Shown here piece after piece: positions 3 through 46,088 of a stretch of DNA of 46,267 bases. Made by a program: the position numbers and the translations under genes. The number at the start of each line of letters is the position of its first letter. The stretch's first letter is position 1. The stretch covers positions 1 through 46,267 of the forward strand of contig JADHUT010000005.1 of assembly GCA_016784385.1 (NCBI GenBank), read 5' to 3'. The DNA is from Candidatus Microgenomates bacterium. Its GTDB lineage: Bacteria > Patescibacteriota > Microgenomatia > UBA8517. The notes under the pieces were generated by a model. That model did no database searches. It was not told where the DNA came from and was given only the letters and a program-made list of their open reading frames with translations.

Positions 3-356
3 GTTCTTAAAGAGATTGGTAAACTTTCAAAGACTAACAAGAAGTATTACCAAGACAGTATTGATGTGTATAAACTTTCTCAAAATGCACATGAGACTTA
101 CAGAAAAGCAAACAAAGACAGCAAGAGAAACTTGTTAAAACTTGCATTTGGTGAACTTCTGTTAGATGAAGGAAAACTTCAGTACTCGTACTCTAAAACA
201 TTTGAGTTACTTCAAAAAGCTGTAAGCACAACCAATAGTTCGAAAATACCAGAAAATGAGTTTATGAAGTTAAAAATTTTCGAACAACCCAAAAAGGCCG
301 AAAACGTGGGAGTAACTCAAGGATTTTATCCTCAGAGTTACCTTGTGCGGGAGTGA
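3..356 (+). CDS. C-terminal part of a probable large serine recombinase (5'-truncated by the window edge)
   Basis: The frame is open from base 3 (VLKEIGKLSKTNKKYYQDSIDVYKLSQNAHETYRKANKDSKRNLLKLAFGELLLDEGKL...). The KRxLLxLxFxxLxL tail resembles the end of tRNA-associated serine recombinases, and the stop lies inside the antisense 3' end of tRNA-Asp. The catalytic domain is not visible. Confidence 0.55.
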   Translation, partial: VLKEIGKLSKTNKKYYQDSIDVYKLSQNAHETYRKANKDSKRNLLKLAFGELLLDEGKLQYSYSKTFELLQKAVSTTNSSKIPENEFMKLKIFEQPKKAENVGVTQGFYPQSYLVRE

Positions 357-613
357 CGAGACTCGAACTCGCAACCTCTTCCGTGCAACTTATCCTTCTG
401 TTACCAAAAGGGCTGGACTATCTCATCAACCTAATAAGGTTGCCAGGTATATAGTCTCTACACATTTACGAAATTTAAAAAAATTTCGATTTAGCTCGGG
501 ATTGCCCTTAAAAAAGGGTTTCCCCGAATTAGCCTGGTTTTTCCTCATAACATTACTGTCATGGGCTGCCATATTTGACAGGGAAGCACTCTAACCAATT
601 GAGCTACACCCCC
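348..613 (-). tRNA. tRNA-Asp(GUC), intron-containing; exons 613-578 and 385-348
   Basis: Joined exons give GGGGGTGTAGCTCAATTGGTTAGAGTGCTTCCCTGT^CACGGAAGAGGTTGCGAGTTCGAGTCTCGTCACTCCCG: a 74-nt cloverleaf with anticodon arm CTTCC-CTGTCAC-GGAAG and discriminator G73. No encoded CCA. Confidence 0.95.
386..577 (-). ncRNA. Group I self-splicing intron, 192 nt, no ORF, inserted at anticodon position 35/36
   Basis: P1 CUGU^CA/UGGCAG with a U.G pair at the splice site; P2 CAUGACA-GUAA-UGUUAUG; P3 CCAGG/CCUGG; P4 UUCGGG/CCCGAG; P7 GAGACUA/UAGUCC; P8 CAACCU/AGGUUG; P9 CCUUUUG-GUAA-CAGAAGG; terminal omega-G at 386. Confidence 0.93.
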
Positions 614-694
614 ACGCATTTTTAGTATTTCAAACTACGTTGAATAATTTGCATCAAACAAATAGTCAACCTACAATAGATTATATAACAAATC

Positions 695-2419
695 ATGCTT
701 ACTTCCAAGAACATGACAAACAGGCAAATTGCAGAACTTTTGATTGACGTTGCAGCTGCACATCAACTTGTAGATCCTAAAACATATAAATTTCAAATAA
801 TTGCATATAACCGTGCAGCAAGCTCAGTAGAACATGCCACAAGTGAACTTAAAGACCTTTGGGATGACGGAAAATTAGATAGTGTCCCTGGCATAGGAAA
901 ATCGATTGCAGGCCATTTGAGTGAAATATTTAGTACTGGAAAGTCACGCCATTTCGAACAAATTTCAAAAGGAATTCCTGTGGAAGTCTTTAAACTAATG
1001 GAGTTGCCCGGTATTGGAATTAAAACTGCGATTAAAATGGTCAAAGAAGAATCAAAGACTGAGATAAAAAAGAAACTAGATGAAGTGAATAAGATCCGAA
1101 ATAAAAACAAAAGACATTTATTACCATACGCCCAGAAAATTGCCTCTGAGCTCACCAAGTGGCTTTTAGACGACCTAAACTGCAAAAATGTACAAGTATT
1201 GGGGTCACTGCGTAGAAAAGTTGCCACAATTGGAGATATTGATATTGCGGTAGCTACAAATAACCCAGTAAAAACCATAGAACATTTTGTTAATTTTCCA
1301 AAGTTGCAAAAAATAATTGAAAAGGGTGATAAAACTGCCTCAATCCTGGTTCCCGGGGGAGTTTCTGTAGATCTATTAGTTAGCAGTGTAGATAGCTTTG
1401 GCTCAGCCCTACAGCACTTCACAGGCAGTAAATTCCACAATATTGCTCTTCGTGAATATGCCAACAAACTTGGATATTCGCTGTCTGAATATGGAATAAA
1501 AAAGAAAAAATCAAAAAAGGAAACATCCGCCTCCACTGTAAACAAATTTCGCGACGAGAAGTCCTTTTACAACTTTTTAAAGCTTGACTATATTGAACCG
1601 GAAATCAGGGAAGGGACAGATGAAATTAAAGCGTCCATGAATCACACTTTGCCAAAATTAGTTGAAGTAGGGGACTTAAAAGGGGATTTACATATTCATT
1701 CAAATTATGACATCGAAACAAGCCATGACCTAGGACTTTCCTCCATGAAAGATCTTGTGAAAAAAGCAAATGAGCTTAAATACGAATACTTGGCAATGTC
1801 AGAACACAATCCAAGTAAGTCAAAGCATACTGAAGCCCAAATTGTGGATATTCTAAAAAGAAAGCGTGAAAAGGTAGAACAATTAAATTACTCATTATCT
1901 AAAACAAAAAATAATAGCGTAAAAAAAGTGTTCAATAGCCTCGAAATTGACATAATGCCAGATGGGTTATTACCGGTTTCCGGTGTTGGACTGCAAACTC
2001 TTGATTTTGCAATTGTTTCAGTACACTCCAGTTTTAGACTAAAAAGAAATGAAATGACCAAAAGAGTACTTAGTGCACTCGCCCACCCCAAGGTATTAAT
2101 TTTTGCCCACCCTGTGGCTCGAAAAATTAACCAACGAGAAGGAATTGATCTTAACTGGGAGCAAATTTTTGAATTTTGCGTGAAAAATAATAAGATACTA
2201 GAAATTAATTCAAGTCCTGCAAGGCTTGATCTACCTGATTTACTAGTGAGAGATGCAGTTAACGCTGGAGTTAAAATGTCTATAAATACAGATTCCCACC
2301 ATTTAGACCACATGGATGGTATTGGTAATGGAGTTTCAGTAGCCAGAAGGGGTTGGTGTGAAAAAAAAGACATAATAAATACAATGAGTCTTGAAAAATT
2401 CAAAGAAGTGATACAATAA
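695..2419 (+). CDS. polX: DNA polymerase X with C-terminal PHP domain (start may be ATG 713)
   Basis: HhH motifs (VPGIG, LPGIG); GSLRR...GDIDI catalytic motif; FTGS and SEYG; PHP residues DLHIHS, AHP, NTDSH. Confidence 0.92.
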   Translation: MLTSKNMTNRQIAELLIDVAAAHQLVDPKTYKFQIIAYNRAASSVEHATSELKDLWDDGKLDSVPGIGKSIAGHLSEIFSTGKSRHFEQISKGIPVEVFKLMELPGIGIKTAIKMVKEESKTEIKKKLDEVNKIRNKNKRHLLPYAQKIASELTKWLLDDLNCKNVQVLGSLRRKVATIGDIDIAVATNNPVKTIEHFVNFPKLQKIIEKGDKTASILVPGGVSVDLLVSSVDSFGSALQHFTGSKFHNIALREYANKLGYSLSEYGIKKKKSKKETSASTVNKFRDEKSFYNFLKLDYIEPEIREGTDEIKASMNHTLPKLVEVGDLKGDLHIHSNYDIETSHDLGLSSMKDLVKKANELKYEYLAMSEHNPSKSKHTEAQIVDILKRKREKVEQLNYSLSKTKNNSVKKVFNSLEIDIMPDGLLPVSGVGLQTLDFAIVSVHSSFRLKRNEMTKRVLSALAHPKVLIFAHPVARKINQREGIDLNWEQIFEFCVKNNKILEINSSPARLDLPDLLVRDAVNAGVKMSINTDSHHLDHMDGIGNGVSVARRGWCEKKDIINTMSLEKFKEVIQ

Positions 2420-2456
2420 TTTAAATTCTAATTAATAGAAGGTTGGTGATTATGAA

Positions 2457-3044
2457 ATGAATATAGGAATTGTAATATTGGTAATAGCAGTAGTAATTGC
2501 TGTATGGATAATTGGTGTATATAACTTTTTTGTTTCTAGTAAAGCCAGAATCAAAGCATCTATCCAAGAAATTGGAAATCAGTTGAAAAGACAATCTAAC
2601 TTAATTCCAAACTTAGAAAATTCTGCAAAAGGATTTTTAAAGCATGAAAAAGCAATTTTCACAAAATTAACTGATGCCAGAAAAGCTGTTGACAGAGCAG
2701 TCAATTCTGGAGATGTAACCCAAATGGGTAATGCGGGTTCAAAACTTTCAGAGATACTACCTAAAATTCAGGTACTTGTAGAAAGTAATCCTGAACTAAA
2801 AGGAGACAAGGTGGTAACCAAGCTCATGGATGAGCTTAGGGACACTACAGATAAAGTAATGTATTCAAGAAGACTGCTAATTGATTTGACAGCTGACTAC
2901 AATGTAAAAAGAGTAACTTTTCCAACAAATATAATTGCAAATGCATTTAAATTTGATGAAATGAAAGGATTGGATACTCCACAAACAGGAGAGCATGTGT
3001 CAGTTTCAAAAACTGAAACTAAATCACCGAAAATCAATCTTTGA
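2457..3044 (+). CDS. lemA: LemA family protein
   Basis: N-terminal TM helix, YN...QLKR..LIPNL and E.NPELK motifs; htpX lies nearby. Confidence 0.92.
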   Translation: MNIGIVILVIAVVIAVWIIGVYNFFVSSKARIKASIQEIGNQLKRQSNLIPNLENSAKGFLKHEKAIFTKLTDARKAVDRAVNSGDVTQMGNAGSKLSEILPKIQVLVESNPELKGDKVVTKLMDELRDTTDKVMYSRRLLIDLTADYNVKRVTFPTNIIANAFKFDEMKGLDTPQTGEHVSVSKTETKSPKINL

Positions 3045-17109: not shown

Positions 17110-18135
17110 ATGAATAATAACAAACTTGACTCTATGGGAATTGGAAAGGCACTGCAGCTCTTCCCTGACCAGATAAAAAGAACTTTCAAAGAAAGCCTTG
17201 AGAGTAACCTGGAAAAACTAGATTTTGATTCAGTAGTTATCACAGGAATGGGAGGGTCTTCTAATGCTGGTAAAATGATTGCAAGCTGGCAAGAAGATAC
17301 TAACAATATCCCAATTGTTGTATATAACGACTATGGACTACCCAGTTGGGTAAACAGCAAAACACTCGTAGTGTTGAACAGTTATTCAGGAAACACAGAA
17401 GAAACTATTTCTGCATACGATCCAGCAAAGCAAAAAGACTGTATGGTGGTAGGGTTAACAACTGGTGGCAAGATCGGAGAGCTAATTAGCTCTGGTGAAA
17501 TTAAGGGAGCAATCATCTCAGCAGAAGACACAAATCCAAGCACATACCCTAAAAGTGGTTTAGGGTTATCTCTAGGAGGGCTCATTGGGGTGTTGGTTAA
17601 AGTGGGTTTATTGAACTTTTCAGAAGAAAAACTAAATTCCGCACTGGATGAGTTGGTTGAAATTAGGGCATCTTGGAATGTAGAGGAAATGTCTGGGAAA
17701 CTTGCTGGTTTTACTCCGGTATACTTTGGATCAAGGCAGTTTGTGGGTGCTTTGAATGCAGGGAGAAATGCAACATGTGAAATTGGAAGAGTGTTTACTC
17801 AGTTTTATGATTTTCCTGAGGTAAACCATGTACTTGTTGAAGCCTTACAAATCCCTGAGGAGGTAAAAAGAAATAGGTATCTATTTTTCGAAAGCAAGTT
17901 TGATAACGAAAGAATCAAGCTACGCTATAAAATTACCAAAGAAATTTTCAATGAGATGGGCTTGACATATTTTGACTACCAACTCAAAGGAGTGGACAAA
18001 TTTGTACAAAGCATGGAAATTGCACATTACGCAGCATGGTTAGGATATAACATGTCGATCTTAAGATCTGATGACCCGGGACCTGAGCCTTGGATATTAA
18101 AACTTAAAAAATCCCTTTCCCAACCAGTTCACTAA
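17110..18135 (+). CDS. Bifunctional phosphoglucose/phosphomannose isomerase (SIS domain)
   Basis: GMGGS, SYSGNTEET, TTGG and FPEVNH motifs; C-terminal P...I..LK. Confidence 0.88.
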   Translation: MNNNKLDSMGIGKALQLFPDQIKRTFKESLESNLEKLDFDSVVITGMGGSSNAGKMIASWQEDTNNIPIVVYNDYGLPSWVNSKTLVVLNSYSGNTEETISAYDPAKQKDCMVVGLTTGGKIGELISSGEIKGAIISAEDTNPSTYPKSGLGLSLGGLIGVLVKVGLLNFSEEKLNSALDELVEIRASWNVEEMSGKLAGFTPVYFGSRQFVGALNAGRNATCEIGRVFTQFYDFPEVNHVLVEALQIPEEVKRNRYLFFESKFDNERIKLRYKITKEIFNEMGLTYFDYQLKGVDKFVQSMEIAHYAAWLGYNMSILRSDDPGPEPWILKLKKSLSQPVH

Positions 18136-18574: not shown

Positions 18575-20857
18575 ATGAATAACCTGCCACTCATTGTTGA
18601 TTTTAAAAATATTGATAAAGGTGATCTTTCTTTGGTTGGAGGCAAGGGGGCTAATTTGGGAGAGATGACAAAAGCCAAGTTTCCAGTTCCTGGAGGTTTT
18701 GCTGTAACTGTTCCTTCATATGAGCTGTTTTTAAAAGAAAACGAAATCGCACAAAAGATATACGATATCCTTAAGCCAGTTGATGTTGACGATCCAGCAC
18801 AACTTGAATCAGCTTCAAGAAGGATCCAGAAAATAATTATTTCTTCTAAATTTCCAGTAAGCGTACACAAAGAATTAGTTAATGCTTACAAAAAAATGTC
18901 TGGAAGGTTCAAGCCGGCTTTAGTTGCTGTAAGGTCATCCGCAACTGCTGAAGATTTGCCTGGCATGAGTTTTGCTGGTCAGCAAGCTACTTTTCTTAAC
19001 ATTAAAGGGGAAAACAACCTTCAAGTTGCAGTGAGGGAGTGTTGGGCTAGTCTTTTTACTCCAAGAGCAATTTATTATCGTACTCAAAATAAAATACCCC
19101 ATGAAGGAGTTGGCATATCTGTAATCGTCCAAAAAATGGTGCAAAGTAGCGTATCTGGGACTATGTTTTCCATAGACCCAGTTACCAATTTCAAAGATAG
19201 AATAGTAATTGAAGCTGTCTGGGGGCTTGGAGAAATGATCGTACAGGGTTCAGTGGTACCTGATAGATATGTAGTTCAAAAGGAGACTTTTTCAATTCTT
19301 TCAAAAGAAGTTAACACTCAAAAAATACAACTAATCAAAAGCAATGAAAAAACACTTGAAACAGATGTTCCCAAAAAACTTCGTGACAAAATAAAGCTCA
19401 CTGAAGAAGAGGTGGTTAAGTTGGCAAAACTAGCAGACGGTCTTCAAAAACACTATTACTTTCCACAAGACATTGAGTGGGCAAAGGAAGGTAAAGACCT
19501 TTATATTGTCCAAACCAGACCAGTAACAACCATTAAGGAAACTAAATCATCTAAGACCAAGTCGAAAGGTGAATCCACAGACCATTCAACACCAATTCTT
19601 ACAGGAATACCCGCTTCCCCCGGTATTGGTTCTGGTCATGTAAAAATACTTAAAAGCCCTTCTGAGATAGGAAGAGTTTCTAAAGGTGACATATTGGTGG
19701 CACCCATGACATCTCCAGATTACGTTCCAGCAATGAAAAAGGCTGCAGCCATTGTTACTGACCAAGGAGGTATGACAAGTCACGCTGCAATCGTTTCCAG
19801 AGAAATGGGAACACCTGCAGTAGTGGGTACTAAAATAGCTACAACTACACTGATTGAGGGTGATATTGTGACAGTAAACGGTGAATCAGGCCACATTTTT
19901 ATGGGTGGAAATATAGCTGCAGCTGAAGTATCCAAGAAAAAGGCTGATAAAAAGAAGAAATACAAAAAAAATCTAAAAACTGCTACAAAAATATATGTAA
20001 ATCTGGGAGAGCCTGAGCTCTCTGCAAAGGTATCAAAACAAAATGTTGATGGAGTAGGACTTCTCCGTGCAGAATTCATGATTGCCAATATTGGAATTCA
20101 TCCAAAACAAGCCATAAAATTGCACAAACAAGATGACTTTGTAAATAAATTAGTTAAAGATTTGACTACCTTTTGTAAAAATTTTGGGGAAAGACCTGTC
20201 ATTTATCGAGCTACTGACTTTAAAACCAATGAATATAGATCTTTGGAAGGAGGTAAAACTTGGGAACCAGATGAACCCAACCCAATGCTTGGTTACAGGG
20301 GTGCATTTCGATATGTCGCAGATCCTGAAGTATTTAATTTAGAACTTCGGGCAATCCGCAAGGTTAGGGCTATTCACAAAAACCTACACCTAATGATTCC
20401 ATTTGTTCGCTCTCCTGAAGAGCTTCGACGAGTAAGAAGATTTGTAGAAACTGAAGGTTTCTTTGACGATCCGACTTTCAAATTTTGGATGATGGTTGAG
20501 CTTCCAGTAAACGTAATTTTGTTGGACAAATTCATAGAGGTTGGAATTGATGGAGTTTCAGTTGGTAGTAATGATTTAACAATGCTTCTTCAAGGAACTG
20601 ACAGAGACAATTCAACTGTGGCAAGCGCATTTAATGAAAGATCGCCCGAGGTAATTTGGGCCTTAAAGAGGGTTATCAGAAAGTGTCACAAGGCAGGAAT
20701 CACTGCTTCTATTTGTGGACAAGCAGTTTCTTCATACGATGAATTAGTAGAAATTTTAGTTAAAGCTGGAATTACAAGTCTCTCAGTTAATCCAGATGCA
20801 ATAGATAGGGTTAGAAATGTTGTATATGAAGTTGAGAAGAACATTGGAGTAAAATAA
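18575..20857 (+). CDS. ppsA: Phosphoenolpyruvate synthase
   Basis: GGKGANLGE, VRSSATAED, GGMTSHAAIVSRE, GVGLLRAE, GSNDLT and ICGQ motifs. Confidence 0.95.
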   Translation: MNNLPLIVDFKNIDKGDLSLVGGKGANLGEMTKAKFPVPGGFAVTVPSYELFLKENEIAQKIYDILKPVDVDDPAQLESASRRIQKIIISSKFPVSVHKELVNAYKKMSGRFKPALVAVRSSATAEDLPGMSFAGQQATFLNIKGENNLQVAVRECWASLFTPRAIYYRTQNKIPHEGVGISVIVQKMVQSSVSGTMFSIDPVTNFKDRIVIEAVWGLGEMIVQGSVVPDRYVVQKETFSILSKEVNTQKIQLIKSNEKTLETDVPKKLRDKIKLTEEEVVKLAKLADGLQKHYYFPQDIEWAKEGKDLYIVQTRPVTTIKETKSSKTKSKGESTDHSTPILTGIPASPGIGSGHVKILKSPSEIGRVSKGDILVAPMTSPDYVPAMKKAAAIVTDQGGMTSHAAIVSREMGTPAVVGTKIATTTLIEGDIVTVNGESGHIFMGGNIAAAEVSKKKADKKKKYKKNLKTATKIYVNLGEPELSAKVSKQNVDGVGLLRAEFMIANIGIHPKQAIKLHKQDDFVNKLVKDLTTFCKNFGERPVIYRATDFKTNEYRSLEGGKTWEPDEPNPMLGYRGAFRYVADPEVFNLELRAIRKVRAIHKNLHLMIPFVRSPEELRRVRRFVETEGFFDDPTFKFWMMVELPVNVILLDKFIEVGIDGVSVGSNDLTMLLQGTDRDNSTVASAFNERSPEVIWALKRVIRKCHKAGITASICGQAVSSYDELVEILVKAGITSLSVNPDAIDRVRNVVYEVEKNIGVK

Positions 20858-38317: not shown

Positions 38318-38335
38318 AATATATAAATATTTTTG

Positions 38336-38409
38336 GGTGGCTGAGGAGAATTGAACTCCCGACCTTTCCCTCCACAGGGGAACGCTCTGCCAACTGAGCT
38401 ACAACCACC
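38336..38409 (-). tRNA. tRNA-His(GUG) with encoded G-1
   Basis: GGTGGTTGTAGCTCAGTTGGCAGAGCG-TTCCC-CTGTGGA-GGGAA-AGGTCGGGAGTTCAATTCTCCTCAGCCACC; G-1:C73 pair. Confidence 0.95.
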
Positions 38410-38426
38410 AAACAATTACTGTTGTG

Positions 38427-38497
38427 AGCAGGTAGAGGGAATCGAACCCTCATTTACTGCTTGGAAAGCAGTAGTTCTGCCATTAAACTATACCTGC
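38427..38497 (-). tRNA. tRNA-Gly(UCC)
   Basis: GCAGGTA...ACTGC-TTTCCAA-GCAGT...GAGGGTTCGATTCCCTC-TACCTGC-T. Confidence 0.95.
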
Positions 38498-38528
38498 ATT
38501 CAAAGTAAAGCCAAGCTCTACTTTTCTG

Positions 38529-38602
38529 TCGGGGTGCCCGGGCTCGAACCGGGGACCTCACCGTCCCAAACGGCGCACTCTACCAAACTGAGCTACACCC
38601 CG
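38529..38602 (-). tRNA. tRNA-Pro(UGG)
   Basis: CGGGGTG...CGCCG-TTTGGGA-CGGTG...GGTTCGAGCC...CACCCCG-A. Confidence 0.95.
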
Positions 38603-38633
38603 TAAATATCAAAGATTATTATAACATTACTTG

Positions 38634-38717
38634 TGTCGGAGAGAGGATTCGAACCTCCACGCCATATAATGACAAAGGCTCTTAAGGCCTTCGCGTCTAC
38701 CATTCCGCCACTCCGAC
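38634..38717 (-). tRNA. tRNA-Leu(UAA)
   Basis: GTCGGAG...AAGGC-CTTAAGA-GCCTT; long variable arm; GGAGGTTCGAATCCTCT; A73. Confidence 0.95.
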
Positions 38718-38748
38718 ATATATTACTATTATATCAAAATTGAGTAAA

Positions 38749-40365
38749 TTATGTTGTTTTTACTGACTTCAGAAATTCCACAAAAATTGGGTGGGGGGTT
38801 GTGGGCCTACTTTTATATTCAGGGTGAAACTGTACCCCAACAAAGAATTTTTTTCCTGGAAGTTCAATTACTTCTACCAGTTTTCCATTTGGAGACATTC
38901 CACTAAACACCATTCCATTTTTTTCAAATTGTTTTTTGAATTTATTATTAAATTCATATCTATGTCTGTGTCTTTCTGATATAACTTTAGAATTATAAAT
39001 TTTGTATAGTTTTGAATTCTTTTTTATTTTGCAAGGGTATGCACCAAGTCTAATTGTCCCTCCATATTTTTTGTCTTTTATTAATTTTACTTGATCTGCC
39101 ATTGTATGAATCACTGGATACTTTGTTTTTGGATTTACTTCCATAGAGTTTGCACTTTTTAGACCTAACACATTTCTGCCATATTCAATGACAGCCATTT
39201 GCATACCAAAACAAAGCCCTAAAAACGGTAAATCGTTTTCACGAGCGTACTTAATCGCTTTTATTTTCCCCTCCACACCACGTTTTCCCCAACCTTGTGG
39301 AATTATTATTCCATTTAACTCTTTCATTGTTTTTTTGAAATTCTTTGTTTTTTCTAAAGCTTCTGAATCTATCCATATGATTTCGGAGTCAATTCCAAGT
39401 TTCCAACCAGCGTGCTTGATAGCTTCTACTACACACACATAACTGTCAGAAAGTACGTAATCTCCAGTCTTTTGATACTTACCAATTACTCCAATCTTGG
39501 TTTTTTTGGAAGTACTATTAATTTTTTTAACTAAAGCATTCCACTCGCCAAGGTCTTGTTTTTGTTTTTTCAGCCCCAACTTTTTTAAAATATTTACATC
39601 AAAATTTTGTTTTTTCAAAACCAAGGGAACTTCATATATACTTTCTACATCAGGGGCTGCAATAATATCCTCCATTTTAACTCCAGACGCTAGTGCAATT
39701 TTTTCTTTTCTTTTTTCATCAATCCAAATTTCGGACCTTGCAACTATAAAGTCAGGGGAAAGGCCCAGTGAATTAAGTTGGCTTACAGATTGCTGGAGTG
39801 GTTTACTTTTAAGCTCTCCAATAGAAGGAGGTGCTGGCAAATAACCTACATGAACTAATATTGTATCGTCTGGGCTTTCCAGTTTTAATCTCCTTACGCT
39901 TTCAAAAAAAAGTAGTCCTTCATATTCACCGACAGTTCCACCAAGCTCAACAATTACTACGTCGGACTTACTAGACAATCCTGCCTGTTTCCATTTATTA
40001 ATAATTTCAGGAGGGATATGGTGGTATGGTTCAACACATTTGCCTCCATAATCCAAAGCCCTTTCTTTATCCAGCACAAGCCTGTAAAGCTGACCATTTG
40101 TTGTATAGTTGGAGCGGGTTAAATCAATATCTAAAAATCGTTCGTAATGACCCAAATCTTGATCTGTTTCTAATCCATCATCAGTAACAAATACTTCACC
40201 ATGCTCAATTGGGTTCATTGTTCCTGCATCTTCATTAAGATACATGTCACACTTCATTGCAGTTACCTTAATTCCGCGAGATTTAAGAAGAAGACCTATT
40301 GAGGCAGCTGTTATGCCTTTACCAAGGCCTGACAGTACTCCACCTGAAACTATTATGAATTTCAA
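38749..40365 (-). CDS. pyrG: CTP synthase
   Basis: GGVLSGLGKG, DAGTMNP.EHGEVFV, GGTVG, GLCFGMQ, ERHRHRYE and QFHPE motifs. Confidence 0.97.
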   Translation of the reverse strand: MKFIIVSGGVLSGLGKGITAASIGLLLKSRGIKVTAMKCDMYLNEDAGTMNPIEHGEVFVTDDGLETDQDLGHYERFLDIDLTRSNYTTNGQLYRLVLDKERALDYGGKCVEPYHHIPPEIINKWKQAGLSSKSDVVIVELGGTVGEYEGLLFFESVRRLKLESPDDTILVHVGYLPAPPSIGELKSKPLQQSVSQLNSLGLSPDFIVARSEIWIDEKRKEKIALASGVKMEDIIAAPDVESIYEVPLVLKKQNFDVNILKKLGLKKQKQDLGEWNALVKKINSTSKKTKIGVIGKYQKTGDYVLSDSYVCVVEAIKHAGWKLGIDSEIIWIDSEALEKTKNFKKTMKELNGIIIPQGWGKRGVEGKIKAIKYARENDLPFLGLCFGMQMAVIEYGRNVLGLKSANSMEVNPKTKYPVIHTMADQVKLIKDKKYGGTIRLGAYPCKIKKNSKLYKIYNSKVISERHRHRYEFNNKFKKQFEKNGMVFSGMSPNGKLVEVIELPGKKFFVGVQFHPEYKSRPTTPHPIFVEFLKSVKTT

Positions 40366-40414
40366 TATGAAGATATTTATACCATGAAACTGATAAAAAT
40401 GTAAGGAAGTTTTG

Positions 40415-40486
40415 TGCGCCTAGAGAGAGTCGAACTCCCATTTTCCGTTCCGAAGACGGACGCTCTATCCATTGAGCTATAGGCGC
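40415..40486 (-). tRNA. tRNA-Arg(UCG)
   Basis: GCGCCTA...TCCGT-CTTCGGA-ACGGA...TAGGCGC-A. Confidence 0.95.
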
Positions 40487-40592
40487 ATGCGTACTCTTAA
40501 TATCCTTCCAAATTATACCTTAATACACAAATAATTACCTACACCAGGGGTGTTATTATAAAACTAAAGAGGTCTATATATAAACAAATGGG

Positions 40593-40910
40593 TTAATTTT
40601 CTTCCAAAAGTATGGTTTCTAGATTTGCTGCACGTTCCTGGTATTCTGAAATCTTTTGTAATTTATGTGCATGTTTATCTACTTTTGCTTTCAAATCTTC
40701 TTTACATCCTCTTGGTATGAGGTTTGCCCAGCATCTATTCCTGCCCCCATATCCATCACAATCGACTGTTGTTGTTACTAAATTACCATCAATATCATAG
40801 GAATTAGCTATAGATGCCCCATTTCCTCTACAGGTACCTATTTTTATAACTTGTTTTTCAACACCATCAGGTAAATCGTTGGTTATAATAATTGTTACTG
40901 GAATTTCCAT
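40593..40910 (-). CDS. Hypothetical protein (4 Cys)
   Basis: 105-aa ATG ORF filling the intergenic space; no recognised family. Confidence 0.6.
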   Translation of the reverse strand: MEIPVTIIITNDLPDGVEKQVIKIGTCRGNGASIANSYDIDGNLVTTTVDCDGYGGRNRCWANLIPRGCKEDLKAKVDKHAHKLQKISEYQERAANLETILLEEN

Positions 40911-40947
40911 ATTTATATTTTTATCATCTCAAAAGTCAACTTCAACT

Positions 40948-41406
40948 TCACATTTTATTAACATCTAAAACTCCTTTTATTGCAAGGTTCTCATAACCTA
41001 TGATCGCTTTTTCAGGAAGTTCTCCTGCTTCCCGAACTCTATTTATTATCTCAACTACTTCTCCAGAATAAGTTTTTACACCTTCTGCAAAGATATTTAC
41101 ATGTGATACATATGAAATACTAAACTTACCTTCTCTTGCTCCTTTTCTTGTTCCCTTAACACGAAAAAGTTTTCCTTCACTATCTACTTTAATCACTGTT
41201 GCAACTTTGCACCACTCACCAGCTACTTTCATTTTTTTATCTATAAGTTCTATTGGGCACGTATCACGATCTGTACAAGCTACACACATTGAAGCAATCT
41301 GATCTTCAAACGTATTCTCAAGTTCGACAGGTTTGTCTTTAAAGCCGTTTTCCTGTGCAAAATTTTCTAAAAAGTTTTTCTTTGCTAGATTATTTCTTTC
41401 TTTCAT
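40948..41406 (-). CDS. Hypothetical protein (CxxC-x5-C...WC)
   Basis: 152-aa ATG ORF with TATAAT/TATACT just upstream. Confidence 0.65.
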   Translation of the reverse strand: MKERNNLAKKNFLENFAQENGFKDKPVELENTFEDQIASMCVACTDRDTCPIELIDKKMKVAGEWCKVATVIKVDSEGKLFRVKGTRKGAREGKFSISYVSHVNIFAEGVKTYSGEVVEIINRVREAGELPEKAIIGYENLAIKGVLDVNKM

Positions 41407-41511
41407 ATCAATGCAGTAGTATATTATAAGATAGTTTTATTGTCAATAATTACACACTCTCAAAACACACTTTGGGTGAGTGGAATTAATCCTGTTATAA
41501 TACACTCTATT

Positions 41512-42582
41512 ATGCTAACAATTGCTCAACAAATTGAAGAAATTGAGGCTGTAATCCGAAAAACTCCTCATCACAAGGCTACCAATGCTTTCATTGGCAA
41601 TATGCGAGCTAAAATTTCAAAGTTAAAAGACAAAGAAGCTGTGGCATCTAAAAAAGGTGGGGGAGGGGGAGGGATGGGTTATTCTGTAAAAAAACAAGGT
41701 GATGCAACTATTGCTTTAGTTGGTCCCCCTTCTGCGGGGAAATCAACTCTCATCAACAAAATTACAAACACCAAGAGTAAAGTAGCCGCCTATGCCTTTA
41801 CCACAGTTACAGTAATCCCTGGAATGCTTAAGTACAATGATGCATATATCCAGATCTTGGATATCCCCGGATTAATACAGGGGGCATCAATTGGGAAAGG
41901 GAGGGGGAAAGAAGTTCTTTCTGTTGCAAGGGGGGCAGACCTATTGGTAATTATGACTGATATAAAAAGACCAAAAGCTATAAATAAACTAGTAAATGAG
42001 CTTGAAGGGGCTGGTATTAGGATAAACAAGGTTGAACCAAAAGTAAGAATTGAAAAAATGATGGGTGGGGGAGTATCGGTAACGTCTAATATAAAACAAG
42101 ACTTTGATAATGAAACAATAAAATCTGTTGCTTCTGAGTTTGGATTCAAAAATGGCAATATAGCTTTAAAAGAAAAACTAACAATAGACCAACTAGTAGA
42201 CAGTTTTTCAAGAAGAATAGTATACAAAAAGGCTATTTTTGTAGTCAATAAAGCAGACACAGATATAGAAAAGAAAAACAGTGACTATTTGTATATATCA
42301 GCAGAAAACGGAACTGGAATTGAAAACTTCATTCAAACCATTTGGAATGAACTTGATCTGGTAAAAATCTACCTTGTTAGACGCGATCAAGAACCAAGCC
42401 AAGAGAATCCAATCATAATGAAAAAACACAACACTCTCCAAGATGTTGCAGACAGTATTGGGACTGAATTTGCCTCAGGTAAAAAACTTGCAAAAGTGTG
42501 GGGGAATGGCTCTAAATTTCCAGGACAAGAACTACCGCTGAGCTCAAATGTTGTTGAAGGAATGCAAATCAGGTTTATATAG
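41512..42582 (+). CDS. DRG-family (Obg superfamily) GTPase with TGS domain
   Basis: N-terminal TPHHKAT..IG..RAK.SKL; VKKQGDA.IALVG.PSAGKST; YAFTT; DIPG; NKAD; C-terminal AKVWG..SKFPGQ. Confidence 0.92.
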   Translation: MLTIAQQIEEIEAVIRKTPHHKATNAFIGNMRAKISKLKDKEAVASKKGGGGGGMGYSVKKQGDATIALVGPPSAGKSTLINKITNTKSKVAAYAFTTVTVIPGMLKYNDAYIQILDIPGLIQGASIGKGRGKEVLSVARGADLLVIMTDIKRPKAINKLVNELEGAGIRINKVEPKVRIEKMMGGGVSVTSNIKQDFDNETIKSVASEFGFKNGNIALKEKLTIDQLVDSFSRRIVYKKAIFVVNKADTDIEKKNSDYLYISAENGTGIENFIQTIWNELDLVKIYLVRRDQEPSQENPIIMKKHNTLQDVADSIGTEFASGKKLAKVWGNGSKFPGQELPLSSNVVEGMQIRFI

Positions 42583-42642
42583 CTTCTTCAGCAACTGGTA
42601 ATTATTCTTTTGCCGATGGACAATTATCAATACAAGGTCTGG

Positions 42643-43212
42643 TTAGAACTTTGGCTCGTTTCCAGGGTTCCATTTAATATTACATCCCGAGCTAGGCTTT
42701 TGATTCTTTAATATAGTTTTTTTATTTAAAACAGCATCTATGGCATCTTTTAAATGTTTCCCAGTAGGATGACCTCCTCCTGGACGGGTATCATCAAATT
42801 GGCCACGATAAACTAATTTCTTGTTTTCATCAAATACGTAAAAGTCTGGAGTACAAGCCGCTTGATATAATTTGGCCACATCTTGAGATTTGTCTACCAA
42901 ATAGGGGAAAGAGAAACAATATTTAGCGGCCTGTTGCACCATACCCCCTAGATCATCATCAGGATCATACCTTGGGTCATTGCTATTTATAGCAATGACA
43001 GCAACACTTTTTTTCATATATTTTGAGGCCAGGGACGCAAACTCTCGCTCTAGATGTTTAACGTATGGACAGTGAACACAGATGAAAGCAATGAGATAGG
43101 CCTTAGAATCTTTAAAATCATTTATTGAAACAAATTCACCATTTAAATTAGGTAAAGAAAAATCAGGTGCGGCAGTTCCTAAAGGGAGCATGCTAGATAA
43201 TGTAAGTGACAT
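42643..43212 (-). CDS. Thioredoxin-like AhpC/TSA (PRX-like1) protein
   Basis: APDFSLP, FICVHCPYV, AINSND, A.CTPDF.VFD, YRGQFDD and GCNIKW motifs. Confidence 0.92.
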   Translation of the reverse strand: MSLTLSSMLPLGTAAPDFSLPNLNGEFVSINDFKDSKAYLIAFICVHCPYVKHLEREFASLASKYMKKSVAVIAINSNDPRYDPDDDLGGMVQQAAKYCFSFPYLVDKSQDVAKLYQAACTPDFYVFDENKKLVYRGQFDDTRPGGGHPTGKHLKDAIDAVLNKKTILKNQKPSSGCNIKWNPGNEPKF

Positions 43213-43430
43213 AGTAAACTTATCCTACCATAAAAATTAATCAGTCGATGTTTAACCTACAGATGTCATGGACTTAACTAAAAAGAGAGTTATAAAGAAA
43301 GAGGTTTATTCACGGAATTTTTACAAAGAAGACAAAAAAATAAACAATTAAATTATCCCAGTCTTTTAAGTTTAATATTCAAACGATGTGTACCACATAT
43401 ACCAGTTTATGGGCTGGCACTATTTCTGGC

Positions 43431-43452
43431 CAGAAGTCTCTTTGTGTGATCC
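43431..43452 (+). repeat. 22-bp direct repeat, copy 1 (distal att)
   Basis: CAGAAGTCTCTTTGTGTGATCC, identical to 45272-45293. Confidence 0.92.
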
Positions 43453-43587
43453 TAAGCATACCGAATCCGAACCAGATTATAAATGAACTCATAGACCTAT
43501 TCAAAACTTTCTTACCTGACATGTGTAGCCTTGGCTATACATATACAACATAGGCTCCGTATAGGTATTTGAACCGTCTATTCGTAT

Positions 43588-45057
43588 TTAATTAAACTTT
43601 GCTGTTTCTGGAGGAGGACTAGATTCATCAAGTACATATTTTACTTTACTGTCTGGGTTAACGATTATTTCAGTAGACGGGTAATGTGTCACACCAAGTT
43701 GTCGTAGCTTATTTGCATACTCAACACTAGATGTACACGAGTCCAGTGATTGCATAATCTTTGAAACTGGTTCAGTATTTTCCGTGCCGTATTTAAACCA
43801 TTTATCCATTGTAACGAGTTTAATATGTTCAAAGAGTTCATATGCTTTATAAGTTCCTCTGTCATTATATTCAGGCTCTTCTGCCCATTCACCATCGTCA
43901 CCATATGGATTAAAACGCAATTCTCCATCCTCTTTTTTAACTATTCCACGATAGGTTTTTGGTGTAGACACCATTACTCTTCTATTTCTACCATCTCTTT
44001 TAGCTGTAACCCATTTATCTTCAGTATCTTCTAAACGAAATATCAATTCGTTGTTTTCATTCTTTGTTACATATAATCTTATTTCTCCACTCTCACTACC
44101 AACCCTGTCAGTGGAAAATGGTCGTTTTCCTTCAATAATCTCAACATCTCGGTTATCTCGTAAAATTGAAATTATTTCAATCTCTTTACCTTCTACGTCA
44201 CGGAGTAGGCGATCAAAGAAACCAACTTGTGCAGGATTATTTATTTTCTTTACAGCTTCTTTTGCTTCAGCATATTTTTTCGAACTTAATTCACTTAACT
44301 TACTTACGAGATTTGATTTTATTTGACTGTGTACTTGCCAAATTTTCTCTTTTACAAAGTGTTTTAACAGTTCCTTATCAGAGAATACTTGGGTTGATAA
44401 CTCCGAATTTCTATCTAGGTCTCCAACTACAATGACGTTTCCTACTGATTGAGCCATCATCATTGCACCAAGAAGCCCAACACCGCCACCTTGTATGTCT
44501 TTAGGTACGCGAACTCCCCAACAGCGTTGATCATTTAATGTCATTGTTTCTGGATTGCTTTTCAATAGTTTCATAAGCGTGTAAATATTCTTACGGTAAG
44601 GTTCTGGGTCAGCTGTTTTGTCACCGTCTAATTCTAAAATTCTTGCATTTGAAACAATGCCATTTATCAATGATTGCATTTCTTCTGATTGCTTTATTTC
44701 GTTGTTTTTTTCTTCCGAAATAACACCCAACATAGACAATCGAATCTCATCCTCTTCATCTTTGGATAAAATATCTTTATTTTTCCATTGATTGACTTCC
44801 GCTGTATCTACTGGTGGCGGTGCTGTATTACAAAACATTTCTAAAGCTTCTGGTTGCAAAGAGTCTCCAAATCGCATTTCTCGAAAAGCAAAATCAGTCA
44901 ATGTTTCTTCTGGGCTAATTAAACCACCATCTCTTAAATCTTTCTCTGACAAATGTACATATGATTGACTTGCGAGCATGTCATATATCAATTTTTCTGC
45001 CGATTTACGATATAAATCGTTATTTGGAGGTTCAATATCTACAGATGCTTCTGCCAT
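43588..45057 (-). CDS. Hypothetical 489-aa protein (island cargo)
   Basis: Long acidic ORF; TATAAT 9 nt before the ATG; one Gly-rich hydrophobic stretch (GGGVGLLGAMMMA); no family recognised. Confidence 0.8.
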   Translation of the reverse strand: MAEASVDIEPPNNDLYRKSAEKLIYDMLASQSYVHLSEKDLRDGGLISPEETLTDFAFREMRFGDSLQPEALEMFCNTAPPPVDTAEVNQWKNKDILSKDEEDEIRLSMLGVISEEKNNEIKQSEEMQSLINGIVSNARILELDGDKTADPEPYRKNIYTLMKLLKSNPETMTLNDQRCWGVRVPKDIQGGGVGLLGAMMMAQSVGNVIVVGDLDRNSELSTQVFSDKELLKHFVKEKIWQVHSQIKSNLVSKLSELSSKKYAEAKEAVKKINNPAQVGFFDRLLRDVEGKEIEIISILRDNRDVEIIEGKRPFSTDRVGSESGEIRLYVTKNENNELIFRLEDTEDKWVTAKRDGRNRRVMVSTPKTYRGIVKKEDGELRFNPYGDDGEWAEEPEYNDRGTYKAYELFEHIKLVTMDKWFKYGTENTEPVSKIMQSLDSCTSSVEYANKLRQLGVTHYPSTEIIVNPDSKVKYVLDESSPPPETAKFN

Positions 45058-45271
45058 ACAAATATCATTATAAGCGATATTAGTATAAACACATAGTTTT
45101 TATTAAAGACAATTTGAAATTATAAGATGTAGTTGACGAAAGTTCTTCATATAATAAATTGAAAGTACTGAAGAATACAAAAAAAACGGCTACAGCCGTG
45201 TGGCTGTCGGAAATTTTTGCGATTTAGTTTGCAATTTGAAAAAAACAAAAAAGGAGTTCTCGCCGGCACAG

Positions 45272-45293
45272 CAGAAGTCTCTTTGTGTGATCC
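45272..45293 (+). repeat. 22-bp direct repeat, copy 2 (tRNA-proximal att)
   Basis: Covers the last 6 nt of tRNA-Lys plus 16 nt of 3' trailer. Confidence 0.92.
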
Positions 45294-45359
45294 CAGAAGG
45301 ATTCGAACCTTCGACCTTATCCTTAAGAGGGATCTGCTCTACCACTGAGCTATGGGATC
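45288..45359 (-). tRNA. tRNA-Lys(CUU)
   Basis: GATCCCA-TAGCTCAGTGGTAGAGCA-GATCC-CTCTTAA-GGATA...GAAGGTTCGAATCCTTC-TGGGATC-A. Confidence 0.94.
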
Positions 45360-45378
45360 AAATTGTATCAATTTGGAA

Positions 45379-45411
45379 TCATATGGTTCTCGCAAAGCGA
45401 GGTTCATATGA
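45379..45411. repeat. REP-like imperfect palindrome
   Basis: TCATATG-gtt-CTCGC-aaa-GCGAG-gtt-CATATGA. Confidence 0.6.
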
Positions 45412-45455
45412 GACCTCTTCTGTATTTTATCAAATTTTTTAGATTATTGTATTTG

Positions 45456-45527
45456 TGCGCCTACCAGGAATCGAACCTGGAATTACTCCTTAGAAGGGAG
45501 TTGGTATATCCGTTTACCTATAGGCGC
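45456..45527 (-). tRNA. tRNA-Arg(UCU)
   Basis: GCGCCTA...ACTCC-CTTCTAA-GGAGT...CCAGGTTCGATTCCTGG-TAGGCGC-A. Confidence 0.95.
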
Positions 45528-45587
45528 TTAAAAAGCGTATATATCAGATTTTGCTGTTATGAGCGCATAAAAAAACAGAAAGATAAT

Positions 45588-45598
45588 TGGAGCGGGTA
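45588..45598 (-). repeat. Duplicated 3' end of tRNA-Gly(GCC), including CCA
   Basis: Minus strand TACCCGCTCCA; GAGCGGGTA occurs at both 45590-45598 and 45629-45637. Confidence 0.7.
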
Positions 45599-45629
45599 AG
45601 AAACTTGACCCACTCCTCACTTCGCTCAG

Positions 45630-45700
45630 AGCGGGTAGAGGGAATCGAACCCTCGTATCCTGATTGGCAACCAGGTGTATTACCATTGTACTATACCCGC
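45630..45700 (-). tRNA. tRNA-Gly(GCC)
   Basis: GCGGGTA...CCTGG-TTGCCAA-TCAGG...GAGGGTTCGATTCCCTC-TACCCGC-T. Confidence 0.95.
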
Positions 45701-45746
45701 AAAATACACAAATTATATTACTCAAATATATGACTTTATGCCCTAT

Positions 45747-45822
45747 TGGTGCTGAGAGCAAGAATCGAACTTGCATGGCGTGTTCTTCAGACACGTGTCA
45801 TGACCAACTAGACTATCTCAGC
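45747..45822 (-). tRNA. tRNA-Phe(GAA), the only tRNA here with encoded CCA
   Basis: GCTGAGA...CGTGT-CTGAAGA-ACACG...GCAAGTTCGATTCTTGC-TCTCAGC-ACCA. Confidence 0.94.
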
Positions 45823-45870
45823 GAGTCTTACGAAATGAGACAAGCTACGCTTATCTCAGCATGTACTCAT

Positions 45871-46014
45871 TTATGTCAACAATTTTACTATCAAAAAAGC
45901 AATTCCAATTAAAAACATTGCTAATATAATTTTTCCAAAAAACTTTAATTCTGGAACTGTTATAAACGATGTCCAAACTTTTTTTAAAATTTGCTTTACT
46001 TGACCATCTTCCAT
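45871..46014 (-). CDS. Small membrane protein, 47 aa (not in ORF track)
   Basis: MEDGQVKQILKKVWTSFITVPELKFFGKIILAMFLIGIAFLIVKLLT; amphipathic N-terminus plus a TM helix; fills most of the Val-Phe spacer. Confidence 0.55.
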   Translation of the reverse strand: MEDGQVKQILKKVWTSFITVPELKFFGKIILAMFLIGIAFLIVKLLT

Positions 46015-46015
46015 G

Positions 46016-46088
46016 TGCTCGCTGAGGGGCTCGAACCCCCGACCTTTCGGATGTAAACCGAGCGCTCTACCAACTGAGCTAAGCGAGC
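46016..46088 (-). tRNA. tRNA-Val(UAC)
   Basis: GCTCGCT-TAGCTCAGTTGGTAGAGCG-CTCGG-TTTACAT-CCGAA...GGGGGTTCGAGCCCCTC-AGCGAGC-A. Confidence 0.95.

Follow-up and report, generated by a model that had tools for sequence, protein, structure and literature searches.

The interrupted tRNA-Asp gene

Close to one end of a 46,267-nucleotide (nt) stretch of DNA from a Candidatus Microgenomates bacterium (assembly GCA_016784385.1, contig JADHUT010000005.1, positions 1 to 46,267; this whole stretch is called the window below) lies a split tRNA-Asp(GUC) gene, and the small group I intron that divides it is the subject of this account. The gene and its parts are on the minus strand and run from 613 to 348, a precursor body of 266 nt without an encoded CCA, with a 192-nt insert after U35. 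The 5' exon (613-578; 36 nt, tRNA positions 1-35) opens at 613 with the acceptor strand GGGGGUG; a normal D arm and the first strand of the anticodon stem follow, and the exon finishes with C32 U33 G34 U35, the last of which, U578, is the -1 U of the splice site. The insert occupies 577-386 and closes with G386, its terminal (omega) G; it is identified as a group I intron by the Rfam model RF00028 and by covariation over 34 homologues. The 3' exon (385-348; 38 nt, tRNA positions 36-73) begins with C36 A37 C38, completes the anticodon stem and continues with a variable region of 5 nt, a T arm whose loop reads UUCGAGU and the acceptor strand, ending in the discriminator G348. When joined by script, the exons yield a regular 74-nt cloverleaf that ARAGORN calls tRNA-Asp(gtc). 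The original prediction, made from the sequence alone, had described two tRNA halves flanking 192 nt and a GUC anticodon rebuilt by their ligation, and both points hold; its expectation that tRNA finders overlook such genes is likewise borne out for ARAGORN, to which the interrupted gene is invisible in default and intron mode alike.

The window is present in marine and estuary metagenome runs from several studies. A contig from an independent sample and study (run X6, record 16; 679 nt, window 325-1003) contains the full interrupted gene with zero letter differences, and a contig of run X1 (record 4; window 346-3000) likewise spans the complete gene without a differing letter. Because the independent X6 contig is identical across the gene, the interruption is no assembly artefact of a single data set.

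Folded core and covariation of the intron

A search with RF00028, which had been proposed as a check on the original prediction, recovers the insert with 95.5 bits (E 1.7e-23; gathering score 50) in the whole window and with 88.4 bits in positions 380-586 alone, where the P1 of the model, with its conserved -1 U, aligns to C-U-G-U578 and the guide GGCAG. The whole-window alignment spans 394-665: it assigns P1 and P2 to a fortuitous hairpin of the tRNA leader (620-665), treats the 5' exon as an insertion and stops at 394, the end of P9, with the last 8 nt and the terminal G outside the model. The same shortfall of RF00028 at the 3' end has been remarked upon before (Williams 2020, bioRxiv 10.1101/2020.01.27.920355). 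Since the reported 394-665 departs in this manner from the true 386-577, the coordinates given by RF00028 are unusable as intron ends. The precursor has a folding energy of -94.5 kcal/mol, against -67.5 +/- 4.8 for shuffled versions (z -5.6), none of the 200 being as good.

Helices P1-P9, P9.0 and P10 were placed by hand, and P1-P9 together with P6a and P9.0 account for all 192 nt. In the P1 hairpin (566-581) the exon nucleotides C581 U580 G579 U578 pair with the internal guide G569 C568 A567 G566, with the wobble U578.G569 at the splice site; a 2-bp extension (C577-G570, A576-U571) lengthens the helix to 581-576 with 571-566. G570 and U571 have an alternative partner in C385 and A384 of the 3' exon, with which they form a 2-bp P10. 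P2 (546-563, 7 bp) carries a GUAA tetraloop at 556-553, and the 5' strand of P3 (533-537) pairs with its 3' strand at 447-443. P4 (527-522 with 501-496, the whole unit spanning 496-527) encloses P5 (505-518, 5 bp, with a UUUU loop) across A-rich J4/5 and J5/4 segments, and is followed by the hairpin of P6 and P6a (462-495), in which P6 pairs 495-494 with 463-462 and P6a comprises 8 bp at 488-469. The 5' strand of P7, presumed to be the guanosine-binding helix, lies at 451-458 with a bulged A457 and pairs with 421-415 to form a pseudoknot with P3; between its strands stands the 6-bp P8 hairpin (427-442). P9 (394-411, 7 bp) has a GUAA tetraloop at 404-401, and P9.0 (387-414), in which A414 G413 C412 pair with G389 U388 U387, brings G386 beside P7. 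The tRNA-Asp intron is free of P2.1, P5abc and P9.1-type extensions, and it sits in an anticodon loop; a site in that loop combined with a minimal architecture of this kind is what marks the IC3 subgroup. No endonuclease open reading frame (ORF) of the LAGLIDADG, GIY-YIG, HNH or similar families was found in the intron, the single ORF of which encodes 48 aa without a Pfam match. The complete P1-P9 core, the U.G splice-site pair, the terminal G and the GUAA loops on P2 and P9, all discerned in the earlier reading of the letters along with the lack of a homing endonuclease, are thus upheld by the RF00028 match, the hand-placed helices, the alignment described next and the ORF search.

For that alignment, homologues were gathered in two ways: 60 relatives were searched at the DNA level, and 401 genomes of the class were scanned with a strict pattern. 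It comprises 34 distinct introns (11 from tRNA-Asp and 23 from tRNA-Asn), each flanked by 9 exon bases at both ends, and was made with MAFFT without structural input. An ORF-bearing 520-nt Asn intron (genome G015) and a copy truncated by a contig end (G070) were excluded; the Asp introns of G382 and G488, found later, and the 17 loci of the species-level scan described below also lie outside it. Under a model of 62 pairs, 90.1% of the 1978 cells pair, compared with 34.2-49.4% when the 3' partners are slid by 1-3 columns; 40 of the 62 pairs change on both sides, and none of 500 shuffles matches the model in any of five measures. The covarying helices are P2 (all 7 pairs changing on both sides), P3 (3/5 pairs, with 99.4% of cells paired), P5 (5/5), P6a (8/8), P8 (5/5 aligned pairs), P9 (6/7, with 97% of cells paired) and P9.0, which, in differing sequences, reaches 3 bp in 20 of the 34 introns. 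No variation occurs in P6, in P7 or in the four P1 pairs between exon and guide, and P4 is nearly invariant, three of its six pairs never varying. The U.G splice-site pair and all seven P7 pairs are identical in 34/34 introns; L2 is a GNRA loop in 33/34 and L9 in 31/34. The terminal G is present in all 34 aligned introns and at all 17 loci of the scan.

An intron family in this genome and its relatives

The genome (695,930 bases in 31 contigs, 36% G+C, 95.7% complete with 0.24% contamination) yields 40 tRNAs of 18 isotypes in a default ARAGORN run, and the missing isotypes are Asp and Asn only. There is no tRNA-Asp among the 41 RF00005 matches above cut-off in the whole genome, and a blastn search of the genome with the spliced tRNA-Asp returns just its two halves and no uninterrupted copy. 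An 'Asp(gtc)' call on contig C8 by a relaxed ARAGORN run (308 calls, mostly noise) was rejected for want of RF00005 support. The intron-mode run, with only 30 tRNAs and, across part of the tmRNA, a false 'intron' of 1176 nt, was set aside in favour of the default one. Within the limits of a draft that is 95.7% complete, the split gene is therefore the sole tRNA-Asp gene, and the proposal that aspartate decoding relies on splicing stands to the same extent. As the GUC anticodon exists only in the spliced RNA, all decoding of GAU and GAC should depend on splicing.

RF00028 marks five sites in the genome: the tRNA-Asp gene, a tRNA-Asn gene, a tRNA with the anticodon CAU and two sites in the 23S rRNA gene. 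The tRNA-Asn(GUU) gene, the only one of the genome (contig C23:271-2, minus strand; locus L003:31-246), stands at a contig end and has a 198-nt sister intron after U35, which shares 78.9% identity with the Asp intron across 190 aligned columns, with P6a hairpins that look nearly alike by eye. With the Asp and Asn genes both interrupted and no other copies found in the draft, decoding of both sets of codons depends on intron removal. Standard finders report this genome as being without tRNA-Asp and tRNA-Asn. Such a result might be mistaken for a loss of genes or for an incomplete genome, although both genes are there, hidden by their introns. The CAU tRNA (C23:39364-39626, plus strand; locus L002) has a 193-nt group I intron after U33 (89.1 bits). 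Its acceptor stem is reminiscent of initiator tRNA, such as the E. coli tRNA-fMet, but it has a U1-A72 pair and lacks the three G-C pairs of the anticodon stem; the genome's sole other CAU tRNA has G1-C72, and a tRNA-Ile(UAU) is also present. By elimination, the split CAU tRNA may be the initiator. Elsewhere in the window, ten uninterrupted tRNA genes occupy 38335-46088 (minus strand) in three groups (His, Gly, Pro, Leu; Arg; and Lys, Arg, Gly, Phe, Val), so that the interrupted Asp gene lies apart from the main tRNA clusters.

Interrupted tRNAs of this type are common among these bacteria. A scan of one genome per species, covering 185,579 species with a pattern composed of the P7 3' strand, a gap of 15-45 nt, a G and the exact Asp 3' exon, found 17 loci, every one a complete interrupted tRNA-Asp with intact ends and an intron of 183-229 nt, shorter than 205 nt in 12 cases. 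Six are titled Candidatus Woesebacteria, one Microgenomates group and two Patescibacteria group; the remaining eight belong to third-party assemblies titled 'uncultured Gammaproteobacteria', which we take as a default label. One of the loci is in a complete chromosome, CP011214.1 (Woesebacteria). Among 120 sampled relatives from the genome's own family, an Asp anticodon arm of the identical sequence stands uninterrupted in 33, and at least 12 have an interrupted tRNA-Asp: seven by a pattern tally and five more (G023, G026, G409, G170 and G350) known from other searches, which were combined with the tally because its second gap, set at 100-130 nt, was too tight and missed them. No genome has both forms, and the remaining 75 of the 120 fit neither exact pattern. 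Both states occur inside six genera (g13, g20, g24, g27, g60 and g69), which points to repeated gain or precise loss.

Across the class, the strict pattern is matched in 23 of 401 genomes, including the one studied here, with no match for a reversed-pattern control. Most of the matches are in tRNA-Asn genes, spread over many families of the class; those in tRNA-Asp are confined to the family of the present genome. The family pattern had no matches in viral contigs. The tRNA-Asn(GUU) introns with a 35/36 site share with the Asp intron the core, the P1 target CUGU, the position and a similar size, and are 74-80% identical over aligned columns; they differ in the host tRNA and in a 3' exon that begins with UAA rather than CAC. 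In the alignment the 11 Asp introns measure 183-229 nt and the 23 Asn introns 174-242 nt.

The established point of comparison is the tRNA-Ile2 intron of Azoarcus, 205 nt long (PMC13168695, available text), which has tetraloops on P2 and P9 and their receptors in P8 and P5 (PMC2813881, available text). With it the Asp intron shares the site in the anticodon loop, the minimal P1-P9 form without an ORF, GNRA loops on P2 and P9, and compactness. It differs in its host, tRNA-Asp rather than tRNA-Ile2, in its site after the fourth loop nucleotide (35/36) rather than the fifth (Ile2.5Ug), in having GUAA in place of GAAA loops and in being 13 nt shorter. According to the available text of another study, the natural IC3 receptor has a modest preference for GUAA over GAAA (PMC2275092). 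The remark that the insert is smaller than the Azoarcus intron is true, at 192 nt; it singles out no special trait of this copy, since 24 of the 34 aligned introns fall below 205 nt, the shortest at 174 nt, and this one is longer than 13 of the other 33. Compactness belongs to the family as a whole.

The settings that the earlier reading had named as classical, namely Leu, fMet, Ile and Arg tRNAs interrupted at other loop positions, agree with the four previously known ones listed by Williams (2020): Leu.3Ug, Arg.5Ug, fMet.2Ug and Ile2.5Ug, all of subgroup IC3. That survey of the GenBank assemblies of January 2017 added 17 new tRNA intron settings, with no splicing experiment reported; for metagenomic assemblies from phyla without a name, it counted 0.49 interrupted tRNA genes for each genome. 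In its nomenclature the Asp intron (tRNA-Asp, loop C U G U / C A C, -1 U, terminal G) would be Asp.4Ug, and its input rules would admit CP011214.1, the complete Woesebacteria genome with an interrupted tRNA-Asp. The strings 'Asp', 'Asn' and '4Ug' are absent from its running text, the isotypes being listed in Table 1 and Fig. 3. The Asp intron is very probably a further member of a family already catalogued, and the caveat that the class may not be new was well judged, given how common the family is in these bacteria. The searchable text of the literature yielded no paper naming a bacterial tRNA-Asp or tRNA-Asn group I intron and none testing the splicing of a tRNA intron from the Candidate Phyla Radiation (CPR). 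With the cyanobacterial and plastid introns of tRNA-Leu(UAA) and the tRNA-fMet introns (Leu.3Ug and fMet.2Ug), the Asp intron has in common the IC3-type build, the anticodon-loop site, the -1 U and terminal G, a patchy distribution and a history of being overlooked by tRNA finders; isotype, loop position and phylum differ, and it is the intron of the CAU tRNA that occupies the fMet.2Ug position in this genome. As for detection, the available text of Lui et al. 2021 (PMC8172020) states that group I introns hampered the finding of some tRNAs in circularised genomes, mostly of the CPR, and that of the tRNAscan-SE 2.0 paper (PMC8450103) describes a program not designed to detect such introns and mentions only the fMet and Ile2 cases.

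Splicing, rival readings and origin

The anatomy of the locus, its family match and the covariation of its helices, together with the lack of a further Asp gene in the draft and the patchy distribution, lead us to hold with high confidence that the only tRNA-Asp(GUC) gene of this small marine CPR genome, related to Woesebacteria and Microgenomates, carries a real group I intron between U35 and C36, 192 nt long, without an ORF and of the Azoarcus-like (IC3-type) kind. By the mechanism that the structure suggests, the gene would be transcribed as a single precursor, in which exon nucleotides C32 U33 G34 U35 would pair with the guide GCAG as P1, so that a U.G wobble marks the splice site. P7 would bind an external guanosine, whose attack would fall after U578; P9.0 and the short P10 would then bring G386 and the 3' exon to the same site, and ligation of the exons would restore CUGUCAC as the anticodon loop. 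For P2 and P9, docking of their GUAA loops on P8 and P5 would be expected, as in Azoarcus. On this account, catalysis would be the work of the RNA itself, probably independently of proteins.

Several points weigh against this reading or soften its support. The assignment to IC3 is a matter of resemblance, and P10 of the Asp intron measures only 2 bp. No RNA run is listed as containing the locus, and no RNA read or experiment shows the spliced junction. The pattern behind 29 of the loci fixes CCTGT, GCAG and CTAATTCGGGGAA, so that P1 and the 5' strand of P4 owe part of their invariance to it; the variable helices are unaffected. Kinship alone can let related sequences beat shuffles, a weakness from which the slid-partner control is free. 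Finally, the genome is a draft of 31 contigs, and a second tRNA-Asp might lie on unassembled DNA.

What transcript-type data there are come from contigs of two runs labelled metatranscriptomic and flagged 'probably DNA', and these do not contain the joint of U578 to C385. A joint of 376 to 589 was considered as a spliced product and rejected: 20 other letters form a different anticodon stem, which identifies it as the uninterrupted tRNA-Asp of another organism. In one run of this kind (X8, with the same label and flag) a 220-nt contig covers 393-612, that is, the 5' exon and nearly the full intron, at a word depth of 33.7 compared with 3-9 in neighbouring contigs. Contigs cannot rank expression, and this depth hints at most at a possible abundance of the precursor or of the excised intron.

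The rival explanations differ in which part of the reading they deny. One accepts a true group I ribozyme and supposes that it is inefficient alone, needing a protein helper in the cell, be it an RNA-binding protein recruited for the purpose or an RNA chaperone, in the manner of many organellar group I introns. The stripped peripheral domains, the 2-bp P10 and the 5-bp P5 would fit such a need, and protein-dependent group I introns, for example those helped by CYT-18, are documented (PMC3984707, available text). Yet efficient self-splicing in vitro at 37 C is documented for the Azoarcus intron, which is about as minimal (PMC13168695, available text), both tetraloops and P9.0 are present and conserved, and no candidate cofactor gene adjoins the tRNA, whose neighbours are a PolX-type polymerase and an ORF without a Pfam match; we regard a dependence of this kind as unlikely. 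A second rival denies activity altogether, making the locus a decaying pseudogene that has lost splicing, with tRNA-Asp supplied by a gene outside the assembly. The fragmentation of the draft into 31 contigs at 95.7% completeness gives this some room, short tRNA-bearing contigs being often lost, but every core element is intact and equal to the family consensus and the exons form a perfect cloverleaf. Moreover, the distribution in the family, with 33 uninterrupted and at least 12 interrupted genes among the 120 relatives and no overlap, indicates that the two forms replace each other, and we think decay very improbable. The most radical alternative, a chimera or misjoin of two contigs, was entertained only because the source is a metagenome-assembled genome; nothing was found in its favour. 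The X1 and X6 contigs from separate runs and studies cross the gene without a differing letter and homologous interrupted genes recur at the 17 species-level loci, the complete chromosome CP011214.1 among them, so that its probability is close to nil.

On the source of the intron, evidence comes from a maximum-likelihood tree of the 34 introns, computed with exons removed. The Asp intron of the window emerges as sister to the Asn intron of its own genome (support 88/92, and 85/88 with the long branch Asn_G351 removed), the pair being nested in a mostly Asn clade, while seven other Asp introns make up a separate clade. Its L9 is GUAA, as in 18 of the 23 Asn introns, whereas the other ten Asp introns have GAAA (seven), AAAA (two) or no P9 loop (one). 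Seven columns, amounting to about four independent characters, distinguish the Asp-type from the Asn-type majority; at all seven the window's Asp intron has the state of its own genome's Asn intron, five of the states being Asn-type, and in none of the other ten Asp introns do Asn-type states outnumber Asp-type ones at these columns. Counting against a change of host, a single clade of all Asp introns is not rejected by the approximately unbiased (AU) test (p 0.406), so that a switch from Asn to Asp is not demonstrated. We accordingly put forward tentatively, as a possibility falling a little short of probable, that the Asp intron was copied from the tRNA-Asn intron of its own genome by a host switch or gene conversion, rather than inherited vertically as an Asp-type intron, and that this took place without an endonuclease gene. 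Reverse splicing could have carried the copy across, or else recombination at the C-U-G-U loop that is common to both tRNAs and that both present to one and the same internal guide; P10 and P9.0 would then have been adapted to their new 3' exon only in part.

Were this true, the four tRNAs with G34-U35 would be interchangeable targets, a single set open to a family of the smallest group I ribozymes in nature (174-200 nt), and three key tRNAs (Asp, Asn and the probable initiator) of a 0.7-Mb genome would be hostage to RNA catalysis. The finding leaves the understanding of this kind of element unchanged; what the family offers is a large number of natural group I ribozymes below the 205 nt of the Azoarcus model, with built-in sequence variation, as possible minimal models of folding and structure. 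The patchiness at the level of genera, the HNH-like genes of some relatives and the signs of a host switch between Asn and Asp also make it a system for studying how ORF-less introns spread. Two such HNH-like genes are known in relatives: G015 has a 108-aa ORF (L016:1175-1501) within its 520-nt tRNA-Asn intron, with a Pfam HNH score of 19.9 bits, and G003 has a free-standing 111-aa homologue (L013:1135-1470) directly upstream of an interrupted tRNA-Asn, scoring 20.3 bits (cut-off 21.4 for both). Both have a CxxC...CANCH motif, and the HNH-like protein of relatives, used as a query, has no match in the genome studied here. Directly downstream of the interrupted tRNA-Asn of G015 lies a 440-aa ORF (L016:1695-3017, minus strand) that is by eye large-serine-recombinase-like.

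Of the surroundings of the tRNA-Asp gene, a promoter-like site, TTGGAA-17-TATAAT (680-708, minus strand), stands about 67 nt upstream of the tRNA 5' end and matches the consensus at 10 of 12 positions, which is a consensus match only. It overlaps the start of the divergently oriented neighbouring gene (695-2419, plus strand), which encodes a family-X DNA polymerase of 574 aa that includes a PHP domain (DNA_pol_B_thumb at 70.4 bits, HHH_8 and PHP). The 23S rRNA gene of the genome (C9:15673-20979, minus strand; loci L004 and L005), searched with a large-subunit rRNA model, is stretched to about 5.3 kb, and its RF00028 matches lie at 17841-18118 (32.8 bits, below the cut-off) and at 18745-19061 (53.7 bits).

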